Shown piece by piece: positions 41,350 to 44,300 of a stretch of 64,000 nucleotides of DNA. The position numbers and the translations under genes were made by a program. The notes under the pieces are model-generated. The model was not told the DNA's origin. It did not search any database and saw nothing but the letters and a program-made list of their open reading frames with translations. Each line of letters starts with the position of its first letter. Position 1 is the first letter of the stretch. This DNA is from Escherichia coli (GTDB lineage: Bacteria; Pseudomonadota; Gammaproteobacteria; Enterobacterales; Enterobacteriaceae): the NCBI RefSeq assembly GCF_016026235.1, contig NZ_CP065613.1. The stretch is one strand, 5' to 3'.

Positions 41350-44300
41350 TTACCATTTCACCGTCATCGACAAAAACCCTGCCGTCTGGGCAAAATCATC
41401 ACTCCCTTTCTGCCACGCCACGCTGCCGCGCAGGGACACTCGCTGACTGATATTGCCCGTGACTCCCACTTTTATTTCACCCCGTCGCTTCACCGCATCG
41501 TCACTGATAGTGCTGCCATCTTCTTCAATTTCCGTCGCATGGGGATCGTGATAATAATTCAGATCTAATGTTGGTGTGACACCAACCGCGGTACGCCATT
41601 CGCTGTGTAAACCCAGCCGCGTCTGAATATCATCCCCCTGCGATTGTGACACGCGCGCATGGTTAGCGGCGGTAAAATCATCCTGCTGCACGCCCTGATA
41701 AATCACCTGCGCCTGCGGTTCAATCACCACACCACGCCCCGGTAACCACTGATACCCGGCTTCCAGCGAGGCGATAATCCCCGACGAGTGGTAATGATCT
41801 GTGCCATCGTCTTGTTCGGAAACATCATTGTTAAACCACGCGTATTGCAGCCAGCTATCCAGCCAGGCCCCCTGCTTCTGATTACCGTGCTGATACCAGC
41901 TTGAGGTCAGCCCAACGGCATAACCGTGGTTCTGGTTATCGGCGCGAGTTCCGGTCATACTCGAGCGGCTGTCGCCCTGGTTATCGCTGTAGCCACCTAC
42001 AATCCCAAGCATCCACTCGCCATCATCGCCCCAGCGCCCGCTAAACAGGTCACCGCTAAGCTGCACCGTAGAAGTGTCTTCCTGCTGAGCCAGTTGCCCT
42101 GCCGCCGTGTAATGATAACGTCCGCCGATAACACGTAAATTCAGCGTCTGACCATCGCCACCAGCGTGATCGCGTCGCTCCATCATAAACGCCTGATTTG
42201 CCGCCCGCAGGTTATTGAGATAACCGCCAACTTTGGCATTCAGCACCGGCTGGTAAGCAGGCGTAGGGGCCGGGTCGGGGGTTGGGTCAGGATCCGGCGT
42301 GGGATCAGGATCGGGAGTCGGGTCTGGCTCAGGTGGCGATGGCGGCGTTACTTCTTGCGATCGCAGATACCAGTCGTTGTTATCTTCCACTAGCGTGTAG
42401 TCATACGCTCCCATGTTGACGTAGCCACTGCCAGCCAGACTGAACTGTGCATTGTTTTGAAACTGCGTGGGATCAGCTGCGAAATCAACCACTTTAATGC
42501 CTGTCGATGTCGGCTCACCAATCCCTGTAATGGAGTTAACCACCACAGTTGTGTTGCCAGCAGTATTACCGTTCATCACCAATTGATCGCTTACCGAGTC
42601 ATCGCCGTTTAATTCGCTGTCGAACAGTAGCGTACCGCCGCCGGTATAATCACCGTTTACCGTCAGCGTATCGCCAGCGACGCCATTTTGCAGGCTAACC
42701 GCACCGGACGTATTGGTCAGATCACCATTAACCGTCACGTCAGCAAGATAGGTCAGGCTGTCAGTTTCAAGGTTGGTATTAAGCTCGCCTGTCAACGTCA
42801 CGCCATCGGTAGCATTTACCAGCGTCCCATCGCCGTTAAATAGTGAGGCATTAAGGGCGGCGGAAGTATCCTGCCCGGTCAGACGCAAAACCGTGCCATC
42901 GCTGATGTCGATAGTGCCGCTGGAAGTAGCATCAATTGACTGAATATCCTGATCCGCGCCAGTAACGAACGTTGCCCCATCACCAACCCACAGTGACGAA
43001 GCATAAGGAAAGATATCCGCAACATCGCCTTTCAGGGTGCCTTCTTCGACACGTACCGCCGACTGCGTTGTACCGCTGGCGGTCAGCTCCAGCGTACCCG
43101 CCCCCGTTTTAGTAAATGTGCTACCCTCATCCTGATGCTGCCCGCTGCTGTCAGCCATCAGTGCGCCCCACTGCGTGTCTACCCCCGCATCAACTGCCAC
43201 TTCACCGTCGGCGCGCATTTCAATATCACGCCCATGCTCAGTCGGCGTAGAGCGAGTATCGACATTGGCAGTAATCTCCATCACGCTTTCTTGTTGCTTA
43301 TCGGTAAAGATAACCTGGCGGTTATAGTGGGTATCTCCAAGCTGCGAGTTGTCGCTCACCATCAGCGTACCGGAGGCGATTTGTGTTGTGCCCAAATAAC
43401 TATTATTGTTTGCCAGACTTACCTGCCCGTCGCTCGCATCGACCACCACGTAGACGCCATCTTTCCCGTCGCCGCCGATATGCAAATTGTCGCCACCTGC
43501 AAGATCTACCACATCCTGACTGCCGATAACCGTTCCGCTGCTGCCACTGACTTCAAGGCCATCATTGTATGATGTGCCGCTCTGCCAGGTGGAGAAATCA
43601 GAGAGATCGAGCATACCGCCGTTTAACACGATCGACTGCGGATCGTCCTGGAGAGCGGCAAGATCTGCCGCGTCGCCTTCCAGCGAAAGCACCGCACCAG
43701 CATCCACCACTATATCGCCGGTCAGCGCCATCGACTGCGCCCCCGCCAGCACATAGCTGCCGTTTTGCGCAATGGTGAGCTGACCAGCACCTTCGATGGT
43801 GCCAGCAAAACTGCCTTGATTAACAGTAACATTGCCACCAGCATCGATATTTAAAGTGCCATTCTGAAAGCCCGTCAATGAGTGCACAAAGGTTTGTTGG
43901 GTGGAGCCAACATTTAGCTCTGCCTGATTCTGGTACTTATCAATACTCCCTATCGTCAGACCGTAGCAGTCTTGCGGATCGTCCTGGCAATGAGTATCGC
44001 CGACATTCATCAGGGAGTTGCTGCGGCCCAAGGTAACTTCACCGTTTTCAATCTGCATCTCACCAGTAAAGTCATTGTTATCTGCATTAAGTACCAGATC
44101 GCCGGAACCTGTTTTGGTGATTAACCCAGTACCAGCAATAGAGTCAACAGCTCCGTCATTCTCTGTATTGCCAATAACCAGCGTTTTTCCGTCGGCAATA
44201 TCAAAGGTAACTTCACTTAAGCCGAGATACATAAAGCCACCCGCCGCAGAGGAAGGACCATCTCCATAGCCTGCTGCGCTATTGTTCTCATCGACTAACA

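Follow-up and report, generated by a model that had tools for sequence, protein, structure and literature searches.

A proline-rich acidic spacer with in-frame length polymorphism at the passenger-translocator junction of the Escherichia coli autotransporter YfaL

Alternating Pro-X stretches, such as the (Glu-Pro)n(Lys-Pro)n segment of TonB and the Pro-Thr boxes of cellulases, are thought to be extended, protease-resistant connectors between protein domains. Proline-rich segments have also been described in autotransporters. TibA of E. coli has "an additional proline-rich domain" at residues 627-677, inserted after the junction (autochaperone) region and before the membrane-embedded C-terminal domain (PMC3835316), and the pertactin of Bordetella contains the proline-rich repeats R1 (GGXXP)n and R2 (PQP)n, the copy number of which varies among alleles and species; a polyproline-II stalk has been proposed for R2 (PMC8931430). 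Proline-rich side loops, as opposed to a junction spacer, are discussed in a paper on the Chlamydia Pmp proteins.

The E. coli autotransporter YfaL has been used as a surface-display anchor in the form of a 465-residue C-terminal fragment, from which residues 29-785 were removed (PMC13101318); this fragment contains the spacer described here. Positive selection on the yfaL gene of E. coli has also been reported, without site detail (PMC9110714). Our literature search found no paper that pairs "YfaL" with "proline-rich" and none on the YfaL spacer itself.

Domain architecture of YfaL

The window is the whole stretch of E. coli DNA that was analysed, 64,000 nucleotides of contig NZ_CP065613.1. 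The gene and its domains were located as follows.

41350..45102, minus strand: coding sequence of yfaL/ehaC, an AIDA-I family autotransporter adhesin (ORF of 1250 amino acids plus stop; NF007285; RefSeq annotation of matching loci)
42391..42723, minus strand: autochaperone (junction) domain, residues 794-904, which caps the passenger beta-helix at its C-terminal end (PF18883 AC_1, 4.4e-18)
42259..42348, minus strand: proline-rich acidic spacer, residues 919-948, TPPSPPEPDPTPDPDPTPDPDPTPDPAPTP (codons, proline count, AlphaFold2 pLDDT below 50)
42193..42237, minus strand: alpha-helical segment, residues 956-970, predicted barrel plug (AlphaFold2 helix, residues 176-190 of the 470-residue query)
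41356..42147, minus strand: outer-membrane beta-barrel (translocator), residues 986-1249 (PF03797 at residues 989-1228, 1.9e-34; TIGR01414 at residues 807-1250)

The identification of this ORF as the AIDA-I family autotransporter adhesin YfaL/EhaC is supported by its match to the NCBIfam equivalog profile NF007285, which scored 2791.6 bits against a cut-off of 1459 and covered residues 1-1250 of the 1250-position profile. The RefSeq annotation of matching loci and the synteny agree, the order in RefSeq loci of annotated E. coli genomes being yfaL-ubiG-gyrA, and the gene name given in the preliminary description was thereby upheld. The neighbours of yfaL in the window include ORFs of 875 amino acids (37713-40340) and 256 amino acids (40439-41209).

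An AlphaFold2 model was built for residues 781-1250 (mean pLDDT 85.8, pTM 0.81), and it gave the order beta-helix, unstructured residues 917-950, helix 956-970 and barrel 986-1249. The autochaperone region consists of beta strands with pLDDT values of about 85-92, aligns with the AIDA-I chain 4MEE and with IcsA (3ML3), and overlaps a Pfam Pertactin match (PF03212, residues 811-914) directly N-terminal of the spacer. Residues 920-948 had no secondary structure and pLDDT values below 50, with confidently predicted domains on either side. The barrel comprised 14 DSSP strand elements, a rough count to be set against the 12 strands that define an autotransporter barrel. The closest solved relative of the C-terminal region was the AIDA-I transport unit 4MEE (E 1e-37). 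PF18883, PF03797, the AlphaFold2 model and 4MEE thus give an autochaperone domain, then a pore helix and then a C-terminal autotransporter barrel. The preliminary description had placed the proline-rich stretch between the passenger and translocator domains, which is correct as judged from the AC_1 and Pertactin matches upstream, the beta-domain downstream and the model; more finely, this stretch separates the autochaperone domain from the pore helix.

Upstream of yfaL, the window contains a complete 768-bp IS1 at 45135-45902, which has terminal inverted repeats and is located 32 nt upstream of the yfaL ATG. It is bounded by a 9-bp target duplication, GCCGTCTTA, at 45126-45134 and 45903-45911, and its ORFs include a match of 167 amino acids to the IS1-family transposase model NF033558 (3.5e-43). 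This IS1 is absent from the strains compared; strain 88-3493 and the O111:H8 strains are uninterrupted here, with a TATAAT about 50 nt upstream, and therefore the native yfaL promoter region is displaced in the window.

Composition and repeat structure of the spacer

Half of the prolines of the whole protein (16 of 32) fall within the 30 residues 919-948, the frequency of proline in the rest of the protein being 0.013. Every second residue is a proline over a run of 13 such positions; the longest run of this kind in 5000 shuffles of the protein was 4, and so the pattern is far beyond chance. The peptide quoted in the preliminary description, PEPDPTPDPDPTPDPDPTPDPAPTP, matches residues 924-948 exactly (window 42259-42333); the span given with it, 42262-42350, is off by a few bases, and its in-frame translation is TPPSPPEPDPTPDPDPTPDPDPTPDPAPT, which includes the TPPSPP lead-in.

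At the DNA level, the core of the spacer is periodic and consists of the following units.

42262..42315, minus strand: three degenerate 18-nt units encoding PDPDPT, PDPDPT and PDPAPT, residues 930-947, the periodic core of the spacer (lag-18 identity)

In an autocorrelation analysis, base identity was 0.64 at a lag of 18 nt and 0.54 at a lag of 6 nt, compared to an expected 0.35, and none of 2000 shuffles gave values as high. Tandem Repeats Finder (minimum score 30) reported no repeat in the spacer region, and a second repeat search with a seed of 6 was likewise empty for this region. The longest exact direct repeat in the window allele is 8 nt, GATCCTGA, with the copies spaced 18 nt apart, and synonymous codons differ between the PDPDPT units. 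Therefore, of the short tandem DNA repeats claimed in the preliminary description, the 18-nt and 6-nt periodicity stands as significant, but the units are degenerate and codon-scrambled, with no exact repeat longer than 8 nt. Three plus-strand antisense ORFs over the spacer (75, 45 and 33 amino acids) were considered and set aside as unsupported by-products of the CCN/GGN composition.

Because it has no exact repeat longer than 8 nt, the window allele may seldom change in length. Codon-scrambled units such as these would be expected to be the more stable form, and the copy number of alleles with perfect copies would be expected to shift readily.

Spacer length and repeat number among alleles

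A 401-nt query around the spacer matched 5,419 of 5,426 complete E. coli genomes, and the annotation of the match was always yfaL; for one of these approximately 5,400 matches, the label of the record is that of a plasmid, not of a chromosome. Only 5 of the 5,419 genomes matched the 401 nt of the window at 99% identity or more. Spacer length was measured in fetched representative loci (L numbers below) as the interval from WYLRS to YQPVLN. The shares of the length classes were estimated from net alignment length in two systematic samples (98 genomes in total), with a fixed worst match left out.

38 residues: an Escherichia sp. protein (P0005)
36 residues: L006 and L009; about 9% of the 98 sampled genomes
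34 residues: the window, L001, L002 (K-12-type), L003, L007 and L018; about 65% of the 98 sampled genomes
32 residues: L004; about 1% of the 98 sampled genomes
28 residues: L005 and L008; about 21% of the 98 sampled genomes
26 residues: L010; about 3% of the 98 sampled genomes
22 residues: L016, L017 and L019; present in at least 21 genomes

These frequencies come from about 100 sampled matches and 16 sequenced loci of a genome collection that is skewed to clinical isolates. The expectation of the preliminary description that linker length would differ between strains was borne out when yfaL alleles were compared, with spacers of 22, 26, 28, 32, 34 and 36 residues in sequenced E. coli alleles. 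Every indel in the sequenced alleles was confined to the proline-rich stretch, and the length variants differed by 6, 18, 24 or 36 nt. All of these differences are whole multiples of 6 nt and leave the reading frame intact, as well as the Pro-X register.

The clearest variation in copy number was found not in the window's own allele but in a family of alleles ending in ...PDPIPA, in which the 18-nt unit CCTGACCCAACACCCGAT is present once in the 22-residue form (L016, L017, L019), twice in the 28-residue form (L005, L008) and three times in the 34-residue form (L018). The copies of this unit within the family are exact or identical at 17 of 18 positions, and the one-copy and two-copy forms each occur on two flank backgrounds, SPP and LPP. 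Thus, the connection drawn in the preliminary description between length variation and DNA repeats holds for perfect 18-nt units in another allele family, whereas the repeats of the window allele are degenerate.

Copy number also varied between alleles that were otherwise alike. The O111:H8 strains 2009C-3675 and TW05614 have no substitutions in 3,717 aligned bases of yfaL and differ only by one 18-nt unit; the 2,397 bases of DNA downstream of yfaL are identical, too. Similarly, the 32-residue allele of UMNF18 (L004) has one GATCCT fewer than the K-12-type 34-residue allele, with no mismatches in 300 nt of flanking sequence. A synthetic four-copy query, used to look for alleles of more than three units, had no single-piece full-length match among its best 40 matches, the ranking of which consisted mostly of two-piece alignments of two-copy alleles.

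Because units are present or absent between otherwise identical genes, we infer that whole units are gained and lost by replication slippage or by unequal recombination between short direct repeats. Such events would yield the in-frame alleles of 22 to 36 residues in E. coli and of 38 residues in another Escherichia. Part of the length distribution could instead stem from whole alleles exchanged by recombination, without de novo slippage, because the yfaL of the window is a mosaic: over the 401 nt around the spacer it shares 100% identity with strain 88-3493 (L001), whereas the whole genes of the window and 88-3493 differ at 85 of 3,753 positions.

Larger rearrangements that involve the spacer were also observed, two of them in-frame losses. 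The yfaL of E. coli VTB97022v (L011, NZ_CP178670.1) has an in-frame deletion of 56 amino acids that starts at FAADPT and extends to the spacer's second PDPT, each end lying in DPT-coding microhomology. The end of the autochaperone domain and half of the spacer are thereby lost, and the gene is still intact in the RefSeq annotation. A YfaL fragment on a metagenomic contig of 3,059 nt (P0009) lacks the autochaperone end and the entire spacer (GAYDYT joined to PAYQPVLN), with a 4-nt ACGC microhomology at the junction as judged from the codons of the window; it could be a genuine allele or else reflect misassembly. Another predicted metagenomic protein (P0054, 624 amino acids) matches YfaL as far as the middle of the spacer, beyond which its C terminus is unrelated and rich in Asn and Lys (PF25833); the probable explanation is an assembly chimera with its join in the low-complexity stretch.

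In Shigella sonnei, contig breaks fall within the yfaL spacer in hundreds of assemblies. The split gene is represented by L012-L015 (5' end) and L020 (3' end). Many of the upstream contigs stop at or before ...PDPDPTPDP, and the downstream contigs, a cluster of 303 member sequences, all begin with APTPAYQP. There is a 15-nt gap between the two sets of contig ends, and no IS sequence was found at either end. An IS insertion within the S. sonnei spacer is nevertheless likely, because so many assemblies break there. The upstream contigs also share a fixed start at residue 303, which suggests a second break in the gene. Decayed alleles were seen among L003, L018, P0075 and P0118: one is annotated as lacking the N terminus, another is interrupted by an internal stop, and in two predicted products the frame shifts immediately before the spacer or across it. 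It appears that yfaL is dispensable in some lineages.

Function of the spacer and comparison with known systems

All 12 homologues compared (31-36% identity; Citrobacter and metagenomic sequences) have a low-complexity connector of 18 to 109 residues at the same alignment position, bounded by an invariant W-Y-L motif and the conserved start of the helix; a conserved Y..N motif, taken as support for the helical segment, is invariant across homologues as well. Most of these connectors are proline-rich and acidic, two of the 12 not being proline-rich, and that of a Citrobacter homologue contains a long tandem array, (DVTPVDPDDGGS)n. Across these homologues, the position and composition of the connector are conserved and its sequence and length are not, which is the pattern expected of a spacer. 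AIDA-I (4MEE) aligns with YfaL in its autochaperone part as well as in its barrel, but its WYLTS motif is followed by the helix after only about 11 residues, compared to 34 in YfaL. Therefore, YfaL carries the spacer as an insertion when compared to AIDA-I, and the spacer is dispensable for the fold, since AIDA-I manages with about 11 residues.

The reading that we favour, at a probability of roughly 0.85, is that the segment is an ordinary non-globular, acidic (Pro-X)n spacer of about 30 residues, a tether with unit-based, in-frame length polymorphism. Given its place between the autochaperone cap and the barrel-threading helix, the spacer would be found at the mouth of the barrel, on the side of the cell surface, after secretion. 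Its most likely role would be that of a tether, flexible-to-stiff and polyproline-II-like, which keeps the adhesin at a distance from the barrel and tolerates changes in length. The extended conformation and the tether function are suggested by its position, composition, predicted disorder and tolerance of length variation. The lack of secondary structure and the pLDDT values below 50 are compatible with a polyproline-II conformation, and would fit an extended stalk and a floppy coil equally.

The same position directly N-terminal of the pore helix is what would be expected if the stretch were instead an aid to secretion, that is, if the first passenger segment to enter the barrel or Bam pore were an unstructured proline stretch that keeps the translocating hairpin competent, with its length incidental. 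The conservation of composition, rather than of sequence or length, among homologues of 31-36% identity would agree with such a role, and the region of the passenger-barrel junction has been described as helping secretion and folding (PMC3835316). However, the AIDA-I connector has only about 11 residues, and the connector of one homologue (P0117) has 18 residues and is not proline-rich, so that a proline-rich stretch is not needed for secretion in the AIDA-I/YfaL family; the metagenomic fragment P0009, if it is not an artefact, lacks the spacer wholly. We therefore regard this role as unlikely to be the main one, although it is compatible with that of a tether. Less probable again is an exposed immunodominant or ligand-binding proline-rich motif under diversifying selection for immune escape or the binding of host proteins, as proposed for the pertactin repeats. 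In its favour are the variable copy number of R1 and R2 among pertactin alleles (PMC8931430), the report of positive selection on yfaL (PMC9110714) and the substitutions E/D, A/E, T/V, S/L and D/N found within the spacer. Against it, the report of positive selection does not say where in yfaL its sites lie, the variation is mostly of whole units with the composition kept, as slippage alone would give, and the flanking DNA is about equally diverse (up to 27 mismatches per 300 nt).

Repeats in genes for surface proteins often act as contingency switches, and several yfaL alleles are pseudogenes or frameshifted (P0075 and P0118 among them), so that slippage might be supposed to toggle yfaL on and off. 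In a phase-variable contingency locus, however, a change in unit number shifts the reading frame or the promoter spacing, whereas all length variants found here are in frame, an 18-nt unit cannot shift the frame, and the frameshifted products are broken at or before the repeat rather than by unit number. The switch was rejected because every variant is in frame, and we consider it almost certainly wrong. It is conceivable, but very improbable, that recurrent 6-nt and 18-nt changes act as an in-frame adjuster of reach, tuning the projection of YfaL relative to the O-antigen or capsule layer. The length classes would then track the type of surface polysaccharide rather than ancestry, and the projection, fully extended at about 0.31 nm per residue, would be roughly 7 to 11 nm.

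On the reading of the segment as an ordinary tether, a low-complexity connector of a known E. coli adhesin acts as such connectors usually do, and the consequence is small. There are some practical implications. Closely related strains could be typed by the spacer as a small in-frame length marker, because two O111:H8 isolates differ only there; users of the YfaL C-terminal display anchor may expect spacers of 22 to 36 residues to be tolerated; and the spacer should be masked in alignment-based tests of selection on yfaL.

In comparison with known systems, the likeness of the YfaL spacer to the linkers of TonB and the cellulases is one of composition only, the proteins and their compartments being unrelated, and a low-complexity match was also found between the spacer and residues 515-547 of internalin K. 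Pertactin and YfaL are alike in that both have proline-rich repeats of variable copy number in an autotransporter passenger, whereas R1 and R2 are described as loops of the beta-helix and have other units and the YfaL spacer is the connector to the barrel helix. The segment of TibA, likewise an E. coli protein of the AIDA-I type, has the same position and kind of composition as the YfaL spacer; it is about 50 residues long and belongs to a different protein. A proline-rich junction spacer with in-frame polymorphism of repeat number is an already known kind of element, found here in a well-annotated gene.
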